Origin: Gammaproteobacteria bacterium
GTDB lineage: Bacteria > Pseudomonadota > Gammaproteobacteria > CAJXQU01
Length of the DNA: 64,000 bases
Reading direction: 5' to 3'
NCBI GenBank assembly: GCA_965238175.1
Contig: CBDEGZ010000003.1
Coordinates: 448,001-512,000, forward strand
The notes beneath the pieces are model-generated. The model made no database searches, was not told where the DNA came from, and saw nothing but the letters and a program-made list of their open reading frames with translations. The translations under genes were made by a program, and so were the position numbers. This document shows, in pieces, positions 2,679-22,003 of the stretch (positions are counted from its first letter, which is position 1; each line of letters starts with the position of its first letter).

Positions 2679-4379
2679 TCAAAACAGGAAATAGCGTTGG
2701 GCAAGTGGTAATTCAGCTGCTGGCTCACAGGTTAATAATTCGCCATCTGCAAAGACCTGATATGTTTGAGAGTCAACTTCAATTTCAGGTTGGTAGTCAT
2801 TCAGTACCATATCGGTTTTGGTGATATTTCGACAATTTTTTACCACACCCACCATGCTCTTTAATCCAAGTTGTCCTGCGAGATCATCTTGTTGCGCCGC
2901 CTGTGAAACAAAGGTCATTTTTGTTGCATAGCGGGCGCCACCAAACGTTGCAAACATAGGCCGATAATGTACGGGTTGAGGTGTTGGAATAGAGGCATTT
3001 GGATCACCCATGGGTGCTGCGGCAATCATACCGCCCTTGATAATCAAATTTGGCTTTGTTGCAAAAAAGGCAGGATCCCATAACACAAGATCAGCCAACT
3101 TACCGACCTCAACGGATCCCACCTCATGAGATATGCCATGTGTTATTGCCGGATTTATAGTGTATTTAGCGATATAGCGTTTAGCTCTAAAATTATCAGC
3201 TTCGCGATCATTATCTAAAGCGCCGCGTTGCACTTTCATTTTATGGGCGGTTTGCCATGTTCGAGTGATCACTTCACCAACGCGGCCCATAGCTTGTGAG
3301 TCCGATGCAATCATCGAAAAGGCGCCTAAATCATGCAAAATATCCTCAGCAGCAATGGTTTCTCGTCGGATCCGAGACTCTGCAAACGCCACATCTTCAG
3401 CAATATTGGGATCAAGGTGATGGCAGACCATCAACATATCTAGATGTTCGTCAACGGTATTAATAGTGTAAGGCCTGGTTGGGTTAGTCGACGACGGTAA
3501 AACAAAAGGCTCACCACAGGCTTTGATAATATCGGGGGCGTGGCCGCCGCCAGCACCTTCGGTATGATAGGTGTGAATTGTTCTCCCTTTCATAGCTGCT
3601 AAAGTATGCTCAACAAAACCAGATTCGTTTAAGGTGTCAGTATGAATTGCGACTTGCACATCCATTTTGTCTGCCACAGATAAACAAGTATCGATCGATG
3701 CCGGCGTTGTGCCCCAATCTTCATGTAATTTCAGGCCGATGGCACCTGCACGCACCTGTTCTTCAAGTGGTGCCCGGTTGCTGGCATTACCTTTAGCCAG
3801 ATAACCAATATTGATCGGTAAATCTTCCGCCGCCTGTAGCATGCGATGCATATTCCAAATGCCTGGTGTACAAGTTGTGGCATTGGTGCCGGTTGCGGGT
3901 CCTGTGCCGCCGCCCAACATTGTTGTCACACCGGACATTAAAGCTTCTTCAATCTGTTGAGGACAAATAAAATGAATATGTGAATCGATTCCACCAGCCG
4001 TTAAAATCTGACCTTCGCCAGCAATAACTTCGGTTCCAGGTCCAACTAAGATAGTCACGCCCGGCTGGATATCAGGGTTGCCTGCCTTACCAATACCGAC
4101 AATACGACCATGCTTAATACCGATATCGGCTTTAATAATACCCCAGTGATCCAGTATCAATGCATTTGTGATAACGAGATCAACAACGTCAGCATCATTA
4201 CCTTGGCATTGTCCCATACCATCCCGAATTACTTTGCCGCCACCAAATTTGACTTCATCACCATAGACAGTGTGATCCTTTTCGATTTCTATCCAGAGCT
4301 CAGTATCACCCAAACGAACACGGTCACCGGTGGTTGGGCCATACATTTCCATATAGGCTTGTCTGTTAATGGCCGTCAT
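2679..4379 (-). CDS. ureC: Urease alpha subunit
   Basis: [32 protein letters not shown]. Confidence 0.99.
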
Positions 4380-14235: not shown

Positions 14236-15344
14236 TCAGAATTAACCGGCAAATTTTTGATCTTGCGGCGACGGGAATAATTGGGAAAATAGACAATTAA
14301 AAAAATGCAGATCAGCATTAAAAAATGTGGCCACCATAAACCCGGAAACGCTGGGAACAAGTCGCGTTTAACCATGTCGTGAGAAATATTAAGAAGATTG
14401 TTGTAAATAAAAAAGATCAAAATAGCGAAAAAGAATAGAAAAGAGTTTTTGATATCTTTTGAAGAACGGACTGCGATAACTGCAAAAGCAGATAAAAGCA
14501 TTAAGAAAATAGGTGTTGCAAGACGCCATTGTAATTCGTTTTGTGGCATTTTATTTTCTGGGGAGCTGCGCATAATCTGTAAAAGTTCTTTACTTGAAAA
14601 ACGCGATGCAGGTCTTGCTGTGGTGTTGTAACCAGACTGTTCCATTTTTACAGAATATCGTTGGAATTTAGTAATTGAATAATCCAGCTGATCAGGTGTT
14701 CCGATATAGCGCTTACCATCATGAAAAATTACAGAACGCTCACCATTTTTTTCGTTGGTATGAATACTTGCAGAGTCAGAAGTCAGGACGCCGGTTTTAC
14801 CCCTTTCTTTTACCTGTAGAAATACGTTTGCCATATCACTCGTTTTTTCATCAAAACCTTCTGCGTATAAAACGCGATCACCACTGCTGAACTCCTTAAA
14901 ACTACCAGCCGTAATCCCAGTGATATCTGATTCGCGATTGGCTTTTTGTTTGAGCACATCAATATTTTGCTCTGCCCAGGGCATTACTAGTAAGGTCAGC
15001 AAAAGTAACAACAAAGAAAACACAGCAGATAGTTTTAAAATAGTGGAAAAATAAAATCGATTGCCAAGGCCGGTTGAGGCGATTGATGTCAACTCGTTAT
15101 CTCGTTGAAAACGACCTAGCGCCATAAATAAGGAAAGATAAAGACAAAGAGGAATTATTAATGTCATGGATGTGATCAATTTCAAAACCAATATCTGATA
15201 AATTATCTCTGCTGTCATTTTTCCTGCGGCAACATCGCCGAGATAACGTACAAAACGAAGGCTGAATACGATCAAAACTAGCACCAGAAAAATCGCGAAA
15301 AAATTCTGTAAGATTTCTTTATGAAGGTAACGTTTTAAAATCAA
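14232..15344 (-). CDS. lptF: LPS export permease LptF
   Basis: ILKRYL, ELQWRLATP; divergent from pepA as is typical. Confidence 0.92.
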   Translation of the reverse strand: MILKRYLHKEILQNFFAIFLVLVLIVFSLRFVRYLGDVAAGKMTAEIIYQILVLKLITSMTLIIPLCLYLSLFMALGRFQRDNELTSIASTGLGNRFYFSTILKLSAVFSLLLLLLTLLVMPWAEQNIDVLKQKANRESDITGITAGSFKEFSSGDRVLYAEGFDEKTSDMANVFLQVKERGKTGVLTSDSASIHTNEKNGERSVIFHDGKRYIGTPDQLDYSITKFQRYSVKMEQSGYNTTARPASRFSSKELLQIMRSSPENKMPQNELQWRLATPIFLMLLSAFAVIAVRSSKDIKNSFLFFFAILIFFIYNNLLNISHDMVKRDLFPAFPGLWWPHFLMLICIFLIVYFPNYSRRRKIKNLPVNSE

Positions 15345-15505
15345 AATAAATTATTTGCCGCATTCTGCACAAAAACAGATCAAAACCGACGATAAAGATT
15401 AGCAAGACCGCTGGTCAGTCCATCGTTAAACTAATAAAATCACCGCAGTAACTAATCATAACTACCATGACAATCGTGCTAGTGTAAACGAACTGGGGAA
15501 CACAT

Positions 15506-16999
15506 ATGAAATTTGACGTAAAAAGACTCAATCCAAAAACATTTAGCACAGCATGTATTATCGCAGGGGTGCATACCGATGGCCATTTATCATCCACTGC
15601 AAAACTTATTGATCAAGTAAGTGGTGGTGCAATTTCTGAGATACTCAAATCGGGTGATCTTACTGGTAAGATAGGACAAATCCTGATTCAGCATAAAATT
15701 ACAGGTCTCAAGGCAGAGCGCGTTTTATTGGTTGGTTGTGGTGAACAAGGCAAATTAGACACTGCCGGATTTTTTAAAGTTCTTAATGGTGCATACGCAG
15801 CACTGAAAAAAACCAAATCAAAATCAGTTGCTTGCTGCTTATCTGAGGTTTCAGTAGAAGATCGTGATTATGCATGGCGAGTACGTCAATCTGTCAGGCT
15901 GATTGGAGAACAATTTTATAAATGTGATCAGCTCAAAAGTGGTAAAAAAACAAAACCATTGCTAACAAGTATAACCATTGCTGCTGGCATTCGATCAGAA
16001 GTGACGGCAGGTACGCAAGCCGCCAAACAAGGTAAAGCAATTATAAACGGCATGCAGATCAGTCGTGATCTAGCTAACCTGCCGGGTAATTACTGCACAC
16101 CGACTTATATTGCAGAACAAGGTAAGGCCTTGTCGAAAAAGCATAAATCTATCAAAGCGACGGTTCTTACCGAGAAGCAGATGGAAAAACTCGGTATGGG
16201 TTCATTATTGTCGGTTTCACACGGCAGTGCGGAGCCGGCTAAATTGTTGGTGTTGAAATACGAAGGTTTAGCAAAATCGGTAAAAAATCAAAAACCGTAC
16301 GTATTGGTTGGAAAAGGTGTCACCTTTGATACCGGTGGTATTTCGCTCAAACCGGGTGGCGGCATGGATGAAATGAAGTATGACATGTGTGGCGCTGCGA
16401 GTGTGATCGGGACGATTGCTGCGGTTGCTGAAATGCAATTACCCATTAACCTGAATGTGATTGTGCCGACAGTCGAAAATATGCCAGGCAGTAAAGCGAC
16501 AAAACCGGGCGATATTGTCACTAGTATGTCTGGTCAGACCATTGAAGTACTTAATACGGATGCTGAGGGAAGACTAATTTTGTGTGATGCACTAACCTAC
16601 GCAGAACGATTTAAACCTGCAGCGGTTATTGATGTTGCCACTTTAACCGGTGCTTGTCTTGTTGCACTTGGAAAAGTGCCTGCCGGGTTGATGAGTAATA
16701 ATGATGGGTTGGCCAATGATATAATAGAAGCTGGGAAAACCAGTTATGATCGTGCTTGGAGAATGCCGCTTTGGGATGATTACCAATCTTTATTGGACAG
16801 TAACTTTGCCGACATCGCAAATATCGGTGGACGGGATGGCGGCATGATAACTGCCGGTTGCTTCCTTTCACGATTTACAAAAAAGTATGCTTGGGCACAT
16901 CTTGATATTGCCGGGGTCGCCTGGCATTCAGGAAAAAACAAGGGCGCGACTGGCCGACCAGTCTCACTACTTGTGCAGTATTTAATGGACAAGTGCTAG
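15506..16999 (+). CDS. pepA: Leucyl aminopeptidase (M17)
   Basis: VGKGVTFDTGG, MKYDMCGAA, NTDAEGRL. Confidence 0.98.
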   Translation: MKFDVKRLNPKTFSTACIIAGVHTDGHLSSTAKLIDQVSGGAISEILKSGDLTGKIGQILIQHKITGLKAERVLLVGCGEQGKLDTAGFFKVLNGAYAALKKTKSKSVACCLSEVSVEDRDYAWRVRQSVRLIGEQFYKCDQLKSGKKTKPLLTSITIAAGIRSEVTAGTQAAKQGKAIINGMQISRDLANLPGNYCTPTYIAEQGKALSKKHKSIKATVLTEKQMEKLGMGSLLSVSHGSAEPAKLLVLKYEGLAKSVKNQKPYVLVGKGVTFDTGGISLKPGGGMDEMKYDMCGAASVIGTIAAVAEMQLPINLNVIVPTVENMPGSKATKPGDIVTSMSGQTIEVLNTDAEGRLILCDALTYAERFKPAAVIDVATLTGACLVALGKVPAGLMSNNDGLANDIIEAGKTSYDRAWRMPLWDDYQSLLDSNFADIANIGGRDGGMITAGCFLSRFTKKYAWAHLDIAGVAWHSGKNKGATGRPVSLLVQYLMDKC

Positions 17000-17161
17000 G
17001 AGATCTCTGATGTATTATGAACGGTCTTGTGAGTCTAAAATATATAATTTCAGTGTTACGAAATTGAACAATAGAGCCACTATTGTTTGCGTTTCGTGCC
17101 TTGATATTGAATATTTTGAATCCCAACTCACCTCGTCCAAAATTAATCAGGGGTTCCCTAG

Positions 17162-17593
17162 GTGACGCGGGTTGATTTTTATATTCTATCCGAGCAAGCG
17201 AATAGAACAGCTGATCAAATTTTGTGTTCTATAGCAGGTAAAGCCTGGAAGCAAGGTAGCGGTGTTTATATTCATACGGATTCTGCTGATCATTCGAGCC
17301 GGATAGATAATTTTTTGTGGACGTTCAAAGATACGAGTTTTTTACCACATGGGTTAATTGATCAAACCAATAGTGAAAAAACACCGATTTTGATCGGTCA
17401 TCAGGATCCACCAAAAGATCTGCATGATGTTATTATTAATGTGACGCAGGATGTTCCTCTATTTTTTGGCCGGTTTGATCGTTTGATTGAAATTGTTGAT
17501 CAGAATTCAGAAGGCCGTAATCAAGCAAGAGAAAGATACCGATTTTATCAGGAACGTGGTTATACACTAAACACCCATAACTTGGACTCATAG
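17162..17593 (+). CDS. holC: DNA polymerase III chi subunit
   Basis: [27 protein letters not shown]; pepA-holC-valS synteny. Confidence 0.95.
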
Positions 17594-17594
17594 C

Positions 17595-20500
17595 GTGGCT
17601 GGAGACAATAACAATAATAATAATGCTTCTTTGGGAAATGCGATTAAAACGCTAGAGGATCTGCTCGGCAAAAACCGGGAATTGCTCGACCGAATTGAGA
17701 CCGGAAAAAGTAATGATCCATCACTCAATGACGAGCGAACACCAGAAGAGGTTTTACGTGATCTTCCAACGCTTATCGATGTTGTTGAACCAAAACCATC
17801 AGATGTACTGTCAGATACTCAGCCTTCGATTTTGCACTTAGATGAAAAGTTATCGCAAGGTATAGATGATATTCTTTCACCAAACTTGGAAGATTTGATC
17901 TATACCGAGATCCATAAGGCAACAAGCAATGTTCAAAATGCCATTCTTAAAGAAGTTAACACCCAGCTTGAATTAACCCTGCAAACTTTGAATCAAGTAC
18001 AGGGTTTGAAACCTAGGGATAATGAAGACAAACAAGAGCAGGAACAAGCTCTGGATGCAACAGAAGAGAAAACACAAGAAGAAATAACAGAACCTCTAGT
18101 GGATTTAATGGCAGAAACTTTACCAGAAGAGATGCCAGAACAAGACTTTTCTGAAGAGTCACATCATGAATCAAAAGTACAATCACCACTTGATCCCGAA
18201 CCACAAGATGAAATACAACCAGAACAAATAGAAGAAAACGGGGATCAATCTAAGCTTGATCAAGATCTGCTTCCAGAAGAAAACCAGAAAAAATTTATTT
18301 ATACAGAAAGAAAAGAAGCCGTTGCTGCGATGCTCAGTGCAATGTCGACCAGCTCATCAGTTAATGAAAACATCAATCAGGCCCAACAGGAACAACAACA
18401 AGAAATGTCGCTTACAGAACCAAAAAACGATCCAGAAATGAAAAGCCCAGAATCGACAGAACCAGAAAGCGGAATGGAAAAAACCTACGATCCACATGCG
18501 ATTGAACAACGGTGGTACAACCAATGGGAAGAAAAAGACTACTTTAAACCGACAGGTGAAGGTGAGCCCTACTCCATCATGCTGCCACCGCCAAATGTGA
18601 CGGGCAGTTTGCATATGGGGCATGCGTTTCAAGATACCTTGATGGATATTTTGATCCGCTATCATCGGATGAAGGGTGATAATACCTTGTGGCAATGCGG
18701 AACCGATCACGCAGGTATTGCGACACAAATGGTAGTTGAAAGACAGTTGGCCGAAAAAGATCAGAGTCGTCACGATTTAGGCCGAGACACCTTTGTCGAT
18801 AAAATTTGGGATTGGAAAAAAGAATCCGGTGGTAATATTACTCGTCAATTACGACGCATGGGTACTTCCATGGATTGGAGTCGTGAACGTTTTACGATGG
18901 ATGAAGGATTATCCAAAGCGGTCGGTGAAGTTTTTATTAGTCTCTATGAAGAAGGGTTGATCTATCGAGGTAAAAGATTAGTCAATTGGGATCCAGTTTT
19001 ACATACGGCAATTTCTGATCTAGAAGTTGTTTCCGAAGAGGAAAATGGTCATCTCTGGCATATCAAATATCCATTGGTGCAAAAGATTGGTGAGGATGCT
19101 GAACAAGAGTTTATGGTTGTCGCCACCACCCGTCCGGAAACCATGTTGGGCGATGCAGCGGTAGCGGTTAATCCTGAAGATGAGCGATACAAACATTTGG
19201 TTGGCTCACGGATCAAATTGCCACTCACTAATAGAACCATCCCGGTGATTGCTGATGATTATGTCGATCCAGAATTTGGTTCTGGTTGCGTCAAGATCAC
19301 TCCAGCACATGATTTCAATGATTACGAAGTGGGTAAACGCCACGATCTTCCTGAGATGAATGTCTTTACCGATGATGCGGCCTTAAATGACGAATGCCCA
19401 ATGGCATATCAGGGAATGGATCGCTATGAAGCGCGTAAAAAAATCGTTGAAGATTTAAAAGCACAAGGCCTGATCGAAAAGATAGAAGATCATAAACATA
19501 TGGTTCCACGAGGCGATCGATCTCAGGCGGTAGTTGAGCCTTATCTGACCGATCAGTGGTATGTCAAAGTTGAACCTCTGGCTAAACCTGCCATCGAAGC
19601 GGTCGAAAATGGCGATATCAATTTTGTTCCAGAAAACTGGTCAAAGACCTATTTTGAATGGATGCGCAATATTGAAGATTGGTGTATTTCGCGACAATTA
19701 TGGTGGGGTCACCGGATCCCTGCCTGGCATGATCAAAACACCGGTGATATTTATGTTGGTATTACGGAAGAAGAAGTACGCGAAAAACATAATCTCGGCA
19801 TCGATGTTATTTTGAGACAAGATCCCGACGTATTAGATACCTGGTTTTCGTCCGCATTGTGGCCCTTTTCAACCTTAGGCTGGCCGGAACAAACTGAAGA
19901 GCTAAAAACATTTTATCCAACCAGTGTTTTAGTGACGGGTTTCGATATTATCTTTTTCTGGGTCGCCAGAATGATCATGATGGGTTTGAAATTTACCGGA
20001 GAAGTGCCGTTTAAAGAAATTTATATTCATGGTTTGGTGCGTGACTCTGATGGTCAGAAAATGTCCAAGTCAAAAGGCAATGTCTTAGATCCGATCGATT
20101 TGATCGATGGAATTGATCTGGAATCGCTTGTGGCCAAACGAACTACCGGCTTGATGAAACCGCAAGATGCGCCAAAGATCGAAAAATCGACTCGAAAACA
20201 TTTTCCTGATGGCATATCGAGTTATGGAACAGATGCACTGAGATTCACTTTTGCATCACAAGCAACTCTCGGACGTGATATTCGTTTCGATCTTGGCCGC
20301 ATAGATGGGTATCGAAATTTCTGCAATAAAATTTGGAATGCCACTCGGTATGTGATGATGACCCTTGAAGATCATAAAATTGATCAGACAGCTAAGACCG
20401 AATTTGGTGTTGCAGAACGCTGGATCAATTCTCGTTTTCAGCAAACGATAGATGAAGTCAGCCAATATGTAGAAGTTTATCGTTTTGATCTGGCGGCAAA

Positions 20501-21257
20501 AGCGGTTTATGAATTTACCTGGGATGAATACTGTGACTGGTATTTAGAGCTGTCAAAAGCAACCTTAAATTCTCCACGCGCCAGGGAAGAAGCAAAAAAT
20601 GGAACTCGCCAGACATTAATAGGTATTCTTGAACAGTTATTGCGTTTAGCGCATCCATTTATGCCTTTCATAACCGAAGAATTATGGCAGCGCGTTTCTG
20701 GAAAAGAAGGTGATGAAGCTTCAATAATGACGCAGTCTTATCCGAAATTTGATCAAGAATTGATCGATGAAGATGTCCTAAAAGAAGTTAGCTGGTTAAA
20801 AGAGTTTGTATTGGGTGTGCGTCGAGTTCGTGCAGAAATGGATATTTCACCCGGCAAAAAACTACGTGTGGTTGTTGATGGCGGTGACGAAAACGAGCAA
20901 GAGTGGCTCCGTCAAAATGTGCGTTACCTGGTTGCCATGGCAAAGCTCGAATCTGTTGGCGTTTTGCGTAGTGGAGTTGCACCGGAGTCGGCGACGGCGT
21001 TGGCTGGCAACATGACGATGTTGATTCCTTTGGAAGATATTATTGATCCGGTGGCTGAACAAGAACGACTAACAAAGGAACTGGATAAACTCGATAAAGA
21101 AAGTGAGATTGCTGCTAAAAAATTGGATAATCCTCAGTTCGTTGAGCGCGCGCCAGCTGAAGTGGTTCAAAAGGCTCAAGAACGCCTGGATGAAATACAG
21201 GCAGCTAGAGTCAAACTAGGTGAGCAATTAGCACGAATTGAAGGAATGAGTAGATAA
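17595..21257 (+). CDS. valS: Valine--tRNA ligase with 293-aa acidic N-terminal extension (canonical start MEKTYDP at 18474)
   Basis: [31 protein letters not shown]-terminal coiled coil; frame open from 17595. Confidence 0.95.
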
Positions 21258-21997
21258 TGTTTGACCATTTTCGAGAAGATATTGCCTGTGTTTTCGATCG
21301 AGATCCGGCAGCAAAGAGTACTTTTGAGGTGATCACAACCTATCCGGGTTTGCATGCCGTAATGGTGCATCGGTTAAGCCATAAGTTGTGGCAAAAAAAA
21401 CTTTACTGGTTAGCTCGAATGGTGTCACATATTGCTCGTTGGCTTACCGGAATTGAAATTCATCCGGGAGCGATTATTGGCCGACGATTTTTTATTGATC
21501 ACGGCATGGGTGTCGTGATCGGCGAAACCGCAGATATTGGTGATGATTGCACCCTTTACCACGGAGTGACCTTAGGTGGTACAACCTGGAATAAAGGTAA
21601 GCGACATCCAACGTTAAAAAATGGTGTTGTTATTGGTGCTGGTGCAAAAGTGTTAGGGCCAATCACCTTACATGAAGATTCTAGAATTGGTTCAAACTCA
21701 GTTGTCGTAAGGGATGTGCCAGAAGGTGCCACGGTCGTTGGAGTTCCGGGGCAACTGGTGGTGCCGAAAGAACAACAAGAACAACGTGAAGAATTGGCCG
21801 AAAAAATTGGTTTTGATGCTTATGGCTCCCCTCAAGATATGCCGGATCCCGTTGCAAATGCATTAGGAGGTATGTTGGATCATATTCAAAACCTGGAAAA
21901 AGAAATCAAAGACATGCGTGATAATCTCCATAATGAAGGAAGTGCAGATGCCTGGCAGGTGGGGAAATCGCGCGATCAAAAAAGGAACCAGTCATAA
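21257..21997 (+). CDS. cysE: Serine O-acetyltransferase
   Basis: [34 protein letters not shown]. Confidence 0.96.
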
Positions 21998-22003
21998 GCG
22001 TAT

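Follow-up and report, generated by a model that had tools for sequence, protein, structure and literature searches.

In bacteria, valyl-tRNA synthetase (ValRS) is usually a plain monomer with a housekeeping role and a length of ~920 to 960 amino acids (aa), as in the class-wide genome sample described below. Among eukaryotes, elongation factor 1 is bound by an N-terminal extension of metazoan ValRS, and VAS1 of yeast has two in-frame starts. A described system at the same gene position is PopZ: in A. tumefaciens and C. crescentus, popZ is the gene immediately ahead of valS (PMC5686542), and the protein consists of a client-binding amphipathic helix (H1), a 78-aa acidic, proline-rich intrinsically disordered region, and a helical oligomerization domain (PMC12999525). 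The stretch analyzed here, referred to as the window, comprises 64,000 nucleotides (nt) of a Gammaproteobacteria bacterium (assembly GCA_965238175.1, contig CBDEGZ010000003.1, positions 448,001 to 512,000 of the forward strand), in which valS carries a 293-aa acidic extension at its 5′ end. An earlier note, made from the sequence, had described a frame open from a GTG after the holC stop to the canonical ValRS start (MEKTYDP) and had proposed a PopZ-like scaffold module tethered to the synthetase; a single 1220-aa open reading frame (ORF) at 17595 to 21257 was confirmed. The extension is a genuine, conserved N-terminal ValRS fusion under purifying selection. A neighboring gene has lost its stop codon and is joined to ValRS in a fixed fusion, in which the captured module likely acts with ValRS as an interaction or scaffold part.

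The extension was searched for in the window genome and 40 relatives (41 genomes) and was found in 7, all in the window's genus, with no match in 34 genomes of other families. All seven junctions ran stop-free from the GTG into ValRS, with open frames of 1137 to 1271 aa in six genomes and the seventh frame cut by the end of a 1594-nt contig. Across the extension in these seven genomes, frame 0 contained no stops and the other five frames contained 4 to 29 each, so the frame is open beyond chance. The ratio of nonsynonymous to synonymous substitution rates (dN/dS) relative to the closest relative (G002) was 0.10 over the 138 codons of the module and 0.42 over the 150 codons of the linker. A collection of 5.8 billion proteins contained 13 fused proteins of 1102 to 1222 aa, all with ValRS Pfam domains; these database relatives share the start point of the extension, and some use ATG. 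A separate assembly (Logan contig) of run X1 (perhaps from the source sample) showed 0 differences from the window over 17100-18900.

A lost stop or a frameshift introduced by assembly or annotation would join two separate genes in just this way, and the window genome is a metagenome-type assembly in three contigs whose relatives are metagenome-assembled genomes. Against such an origin stand the same in-frame junction in all seven independently assembled genomes, with linker lengths that differ by in-frame indels, the 13 further database proteins that carry the fusion, the identical Logan contig across the region, and purifying selection on the linker. The earlier note had suggested looking in relatives and in reads for a stop ahead of the ValRS core; none was present in any of the seven genus genomes or in the X1 assembly. 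An assembly artifact is excluded for the fusion, and an artificial joining of any kind, annotation included, is extremely improbable. The parts of the fused gene, with the gene that precedes it, are as follows.

17595 to 21257, + strand: fused ORF valS, 1220 aa, made up of the 293-aa acidic extension and a complete ValRS, with a GTG start
17595 to 17597, + strand: GTG start codon, in a position that suits translational coupling to holC
17616 to 17702, + strand: helix H1, residues 8-36, amphipathic, L..AI..LE.LL..N.ELL (AlphaFold2, invariant columns, and stand-alone family alignment)
17763 to 17792, + strand: [LIF]PxLxDxV motif, residues 57-66, invariant in 7/7 genomes and the signature of the holC-valS small-protein family
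17838 to 18005, + strand: helical block H2, residues 82-93 and 98-137 (AlphaFold2 and invariant columns)
18015 to 18473, + strand: acidic low-complexity linker, residues 141-293 (low AlphaFold2 confidence, alignment, and composition)
18276 to 18389, + strand: weak helix, residues 228-265, with a semiconserved TEK..AVSAI..A pattern (AlphaFold2 block confidence of 61-70; alignment columns 259-280)
18474 to 18476, + strand: ancestral ValRS start ATG (MEKTYDP), with conserved Met, now internal and a possible second initiation site
18474 to 21257, + strand: canonical ValRS core, 927 aa, with catalytic, editing, and anticodon-binding domains and a C-terminal coiled-coil arm (Pfam)
17162 to 17593, + strand: holC, DNA polymerase III chi (Pfam PF04364, E value [E] of 3.3e-42, match within 17162-17590)

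The holC stop codon (TAG, 17591-17593) is separated by a single base from the GTG of the fused gene, and the GTG lies 1 to 3 nt past the holC stop in all seven genomes of the genus, where M1 and A2 are invariant columns. The ValRS core was complete, with Pfam domains at residues 307-1215 (PF00133, E of 3.8e-154; PF13603; PF08264, E of 8.8e-42; and PF10458, E of 2.7e-16); all four matches exceeded their cut-offs, and the core qualifies as a class I valyl-tRNA synthetase. Its first 300 residues were 70 to 77% identical to unfused ValRS from other families. A whole-genome search found this valS as the only copy, the weaker matches being IleRS- and LeuRS-sized frames.

AlphaFold2, run on the seven-sequence alignment of the genus, placed helices at residues 8-36 and 98-137 with block predicted local distance difference test (pLDDT) values of 85 to 94 (H1 blocks, 85 to 93), and values reached 91 to 94 over H2 residues 101-130. 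The alignment contained 46 invariant columns, all in residues 1-133, and 24 of these fell within residues 93-133. Residues 140-226 were predicted to be disordered, and the pLDDT of the linker was mostly <50. Glu, Gln, Pro, and Asp made up 73 of the 153 residues at 141-293, where Asp plus Glu numbered 43 versus 11 for Lys plus Arg; for the whole extension the corresponding counts were 68 and 23, with an isoelectric point of 4.1. The length of the linker varies across the genus by in-frame indels, giving entire extensions of ~200 to 308 aa. The amphipathic helix, LPTLIDVV-type motif, helical block, and E/Q/P/D-rich linker named in the earlier note were thus all recovered by prediction, alignment, or composition. 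The weak helix at 18276-18389, shortly ahead of the ValRS core, was present in six of the seven genus genomes and is missing from the stand-alone family described below; it may be a docking element gained after fusion. Searches of Protein Data Bank sequences with profiles of the genus alignment and of the stand-alone family returned nothing below an E of 0.2, and complex prediction for three copies of the module gave a score of 0.02, from a run without controls and a tool calibrated on two copies, a value that counts neither for nor against assembly. A tandem-repeat search of the extension returned short, low-scoring arrays only.

The origin of the extension was sought in the valS neighborhoods of the class. 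The class sample comprised 151 genomes (one per family, plus the genus), 143 of which had a valS match; most valS frames were ~920 to 960 aa, in agreement with the earlier statement that ValRS normally lacks such a domain. The region upstream of valS was taken from 74 genomes (those with the longest frames, then the best ValRS matches, then further down the list, with two genomes flagged as unpublished left out), and the valS landmark was located in 72 of the 74 loci. In 54 of these 72 loci holC lay upstream on the same strand, with a holC-valS gap of ≥300 nt in 32 of the 54. ORFs in the gap share a plan of an optional N-terminal helix (L..AL.S[IL]..LL), the [LIF]PxLxDxV motif, an acidic or Pro-rich spacer, and a long amphipathic helix. 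Twenty-five such stand-alone ORFs of 88 to 308 aa, each with its own stop codon, were extracted; among the 23 that were aligned, the P and L of the motif are nearly invariant and H1 is present in 8. A hidden Markov model (HMM) built from these 23 training rows matched the ORF immediately preceding valS at 32 of the 72 loci, 9 of them nontraining, which bears out the statement of the earlier note that a separate small gene often lies between holC and valS in gammaproteobacteria. No Pfam or NCBIfam model scored over its cut-off for this family, whose members are nameless or called "hypothetical protein" in the sources (28 matches). The ESM Atlas returned "hypothetical protein" clusters only, with one neighbor cluster in which 13% of members carried DUF2486, a lead only.

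Profile-profile comparison (hhalign) of the window lineage with the stand-alone family alignment gave a probability of 91.3% (E of 9.4e-7), and comparison with the eight H1-bearing members gave 94.4% (E of 8.6e-8) over 124 columns that include H1, the motif, and H2. By these comparisons the first ~140 residues of the extension are homologous to the stand-alone holC-valS small protein, and the extension is a full-length family member whose stop codon was lost. Stand-alone proteins such as the 170-aa protein of Thiohalophilus thiocyanatoxydans (P0006) occupy the same position, after holC and before valS, and share the order of elements (H1, [LIF]PxLxDxV, acidic spacer, and long H2) with the extension; they end at their own stop, whereas the window gene continues through a 150-residue acidic linker into ValRS. 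In two loci (L027, oriented 2225-2710, and L044, oriented 683-1279), an extra ORF of ~160 to 200 aa, with a hydrophobic N terminus and a conserved ...HMPAVRH... stretch, separates the small family gene from valS.

The nearest Pfam neighbor of the stand-alone family is DUF2486 (PF10667), which is probably a relative of it: 3 of the 25 stand-alone proteins matched the N-terminal part of the model (E of 0.0025 to 0.078; 13 to 17.9 bits, below the 22-bit cut-off). Matches over the cut-off were found in none of the 151 class genomes and in 1 of 301 genomes of the phylum (G225). The DUF2486 gene of that genome directly follows holC and overlaps its end, as the window extension directly follows holC, and its product opens with an IPTLTDV motif, of the type shared with the window extension, followed by a Pro-rich and acidic spacer and C-terminal helices. 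The DUF2486 model, with 260 positions, is far longer than the window module, and the G225 locus has no valS within 1.4 kb downstream. DUF2486 was rejected as the family of the extension itself, on the absence of any match to the extension even at an E of 10 and of any class genome over the cut-off. A literature search without full texts returned nothing relevant on DUF2486 or PA3833.

Fusion of this neighbor to ValRS was not confined to the window's genus. Three more genomes of the class sample (G037, G099, and G134) had the family features in frame with ValRS. In the family of G037 (f32), the module was found in 11 of 12 genomes and three genera, with open frames of 1049 to 1133 aa. In the family of G134 (f129), 7 of 26 genomes matched, and 6 of these were fused, with frames of 1043 to 1111 aa; G099 was a single further genome with a fused valS. 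The G134 fusion (locus L020) went undetected by the family HMM and was accepted on an H1-like helix, a PPxLTExV motif, and conservation within f129. In the seventh matching f129 genome (locus L141; G464:C3), the module occupies a 178-aa frame of its own, and the valS gene downstream of it is unfused and retains the Met (MEKTYDP); this arrangement is either the original one or the product of a later split. The same neighbor is captured by ValRS in at least three families, a count of families and not of independent events. In five of the six f129 fusions an Ile or Leu codon stands in place of the canonical ValRS Met, and the long protein seems to be the sole route to ValRS there, so that a fused ValRS works in vivo. 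Long valS frames in five high-GC genomes (L014, L016, L017, L018, and L021) were rejected by eye as chance frames lacking family features, and the family HMMs matched none of the five.

In the window genus, then, a small gene between holC and valS has lost its stop codon, and an acidic disordered linker of ~150 residues joins the module to the N terminus of the cell's sole ValRS. Translation of the long form would start at GTG 17595, coupled to holC termination, and would yield a 1220-aa ValRS. By Rosetta-stone logic, the repeated fusion of this neighbor, seen in at least three families, suggests that the stand-alone small protein normally acts together with ValRS. The helices may form a protein-protein interaction or scaffolding module, with the acidic leash tethering ValRS to the partner of the module or to copies of the module itself. 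The tethered assembly could be PopZ-like, which is conceivable because the family sits at the place of popZ and has a comparable layout of helix, acidic disorder, and helix.

Several results weigh against a module that acts with ValRS. Its function is deduced solely from fusion, synteny, and architecture; the AlphaFold2 model consists of isolated helices without a compact fold (predicted template modeling score, 0.21); and no Pfam or NCBIfam model matches residues 1-293. An HMMER profile search of 1.84 billion representatives returned two matches, both fragments of fusions from the same lineage, so kinship beyond the genus rests on profile-profile comparison and gene position. The tight coupling to holC could mean that the partner of the module is chi instead of ValRS, a reading taken up below. 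Finally, the internal Met is kept in 7/7 genus genomes and 13/13 database fusions, and the short form may be the main enzyme.

The last point leads to a second reading, with two isoforms. A second ValRS, of canonical length, may be made from the internal ATG at 18474, such that the long form arises by coupling to holC and forms a minor, specialized, or localized pool, and the 927-aa form carries out bulk aminoacylation. Retention of the Met in all the genus genomes and database fusions, though the residues preceding it vary, is consistent with this division, as is its retention in all eight f32 fusions examined. The earlier note had pointed out that the start at 18474 has no strong Shine-Dalgarno sequence (SD); that observation held, with no SD-like 4-mer present, but its diagnostic value did not, because an SD-like 4-mer (AGGA, GGAG, or GAGG at −18 to −4) was found at 1 of 55 unfused valS starts (loci L016-L091). 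The other 54 likewise have none, so a missing SD at 18474 is no argument against initiation, and translation of gammaproteobacterial valS seems as a rule to do without a canonical SD. On the other side, replacement of the Met by Ile or Leu in most f129 fusions indicates that fused-only ValRS is viable and that hydrophobic residues are tolerated at this position, and the Met in the window genus may just have escaped drift so far. ATG codons inside ORFs under active translation usually make poor starts, and a promoter scan found no promoter-like + strand site within 17595-18473, a region with fewer sites than its shuffles. Two isoforms are considered somewhat less likely than not.

The PopZ question was addressed through DUF2497 (PF10691), which was searched for in the 301 phylum genomes, and the 30 best-match loci were examined. 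In 25 of these loci valS lay directly downstream on the same strand; together with PMC5686542, this upholds the statement of the earlier note that popZ adjoins valS in many alphaproteobacteria. No DUF2497 match was obtained for the protein (at an E of 1), the extension (at an E of 10), the genome (at an E of 1), or the stand-alone family, and a Caulobacter control scored over the cut-off. A 22-row PopZ alignment compared by hhalign with the family or the window lineage gave <1% (0.6% against the window lineage). The profile check of the extension against PopZ was thus negative, and the extension is not a formal PopZ or DUF2497 member. No fused PopZ-enzyme frame occurred among the DUF2497 matches of the 301-genome sample, and no fusion of PopZ to an enzyme is known.

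Indirect links ran through a third class of the phylum, in which the weak DUF2497 matches were the ORFs immediately preceding valS at 8 of 10 loci, with three complete ORFs of 751 to 965 aa. The C terminus of these PopZ-like proteins matched PopZ at 97.8% (E of 1.1e-12, hhalign), and their H1, probably of PopZ type as well, matched PopZ H1 (consensus EPSMEEILASIRRII in the 22-row PopZ alignment) at 72.5%. Compared with the gammaproteobacterial family, the third-class H1 and C-terminal helix gave weak matches (29.5%, E of 5.7e-4, and 27.6%, E of 6.5e-4, respectively), and compared with the window lineage the third-class profiles gave 0.3% (H1) and 0.7%. Among 710 same-strand ORFs of the 72 class loci, a PopZ HMM had 12 matches with an E of <1, all directly upstream of valS, the best with an E of 0.0074; shared acidic composition may contribute to these matches. 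The module is PopZ-like in position and plan, which is the part of the earlier proposal that stood; direct membership did not, and homology is represented by the third-class links at ~28 to 30%. Homology of the gammaproteobacterial family as a whole to PopZ is plausible, with about an even chance of being true.

The third-class loci had further features. The giant PopZ-like protein genes directly upstream of valS (L126:3463-6357, L127:3390-5642, and L128:3270-5954, all on the − strand) encode a basic N-terminal tail, a PopZ-type H1, a DVLDLTGMEIDFPTP-type motif, hundreds of acidic-repeat residues, and a PopZ-type C-terminal helix. Two other loci (L124:2574-2918, + strand, and L125, oriented 3029-3400, − strand) contain ORFs of 115 and 124 aa with two tandem PopZ-type C-terminal helices (...LP.....L[VI].EEI.R[IL]R...), with no valS within the stretch taken.

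A broader proposal would make the holC-valS small proteins, DUF2486 included, orthologs of PopZ, with ValRS a client or building block of a PopZ-type scaffold or condensate, a fusion that made this association permanent in at least three lineages, and a 1220-aa protein that localizes itself; this is rather doubtful. If the orthology held, the ancient popZ-valS linkage would reflect a physical partnership.

The PopZ loci also bear on the reading in which the module partners chi (HolC), or the replisome or SSB, and the valS fusion is a neutral read-through tolerated thanks to the disordered linker. Of the 25 stand-alone genes, 18 start ≤10 nt from the holC stop, 9 of them overlapping it, and the 1- to 3-nt spacing in all seven fused genes is a layout typical of fixed-ratio subunits. 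The Burkholderiales-type relative DUF2486 also stands directly after holC without a valS in the next 1.4 kb, and no Pfam HolD (psi) match over the cut-off was found in the window genome. A Pfam psi match is usually absent outside enterobacteria, which detracts from the last point. Fixation of the fusion across three families, with purifying selection, is unlike a neutral accident, and the PopZ or PopZ-like genes of the other two classes adjoin valS, with holC in 0 of 30 and 0 of 10 loci, an argument valid only if these PopZ genes are homologous to the gammaproteobacterial family. A chi partner with a neutral fusion is accordingly considered quite unlikely, and joint action of the captured module with ValRS is preferred.

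In the surrounding DNA, a 246-aa ORF (21257-21997, + strand) begins at the final base of the valS stop codon and, by inspection of its translation by eye only, resembles a hexapeptide-repeat serine acetyltransferase. Together, pepA (15506-16999), holC, fused valS, and this ORF form one tight same-strand block. An Rfam scan of 15000-22000 gave 0 matches. Literature searches without full texts turned up no case of a bacterial ValRS N-terminal extension and nothing relevant on holC, valS, and pepA together.

In the window genome, then, a single-copy essential synthetase permanently bears a helical module, predicted to serve in interaction, on a long leash that is acidic and disordered. Repeated capture of the same neighboring gene gives a Rosetta-stone clue to what a widespread, wholly uncharacterized small-protein family does and offers a testable reason for the synteny of popZ and valS, which had been noted before but left unexplained. 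If the PopZ link is true, PopZ-type organizers would not be confined to Alphaproteobacteria, and an enzyme of translation would be linked to a scaffold at the pole or in a condensate; if it is false, the locus is still a clean case of a bacterial synthetase gaining a domain by fusion with its neighbor.

Compared with known systems, the window module sits where popZ does, directly upstream of valS, but is joined to it. Its layout is comparable to that of PopZ (PMC12999525), with an N-terminal amphipathic helix, acidic disorder, and a helical C-terminal part. PopZ has helices H2-H3-H4, in place of which the window module has one long helix, and the [LIF]PxLxDxV motif of the window module is not among the described features of PopZ. 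The main acidic linker of the window protein follows the helical module, whereas that of PopZ lies between H1 and the oligomerization domain; most of the acidic region of the window protein, lying after H2, would serve as the linker to ValRS and not as a PopZ-style linker. The N-terminal amphipathic helix of the window protein is confidently predicted by AlphaFold2, and its sequence links to PopZ H1 are indirect, through the third class. Eukaryotic synthetases have likewise gained N-terminal, noncatalytic, partner-binding extensions and may yield two isoforms from in-frame starts; their appended domains are unrelated to the window module, which is instead a captured neighboring bacterial gene.

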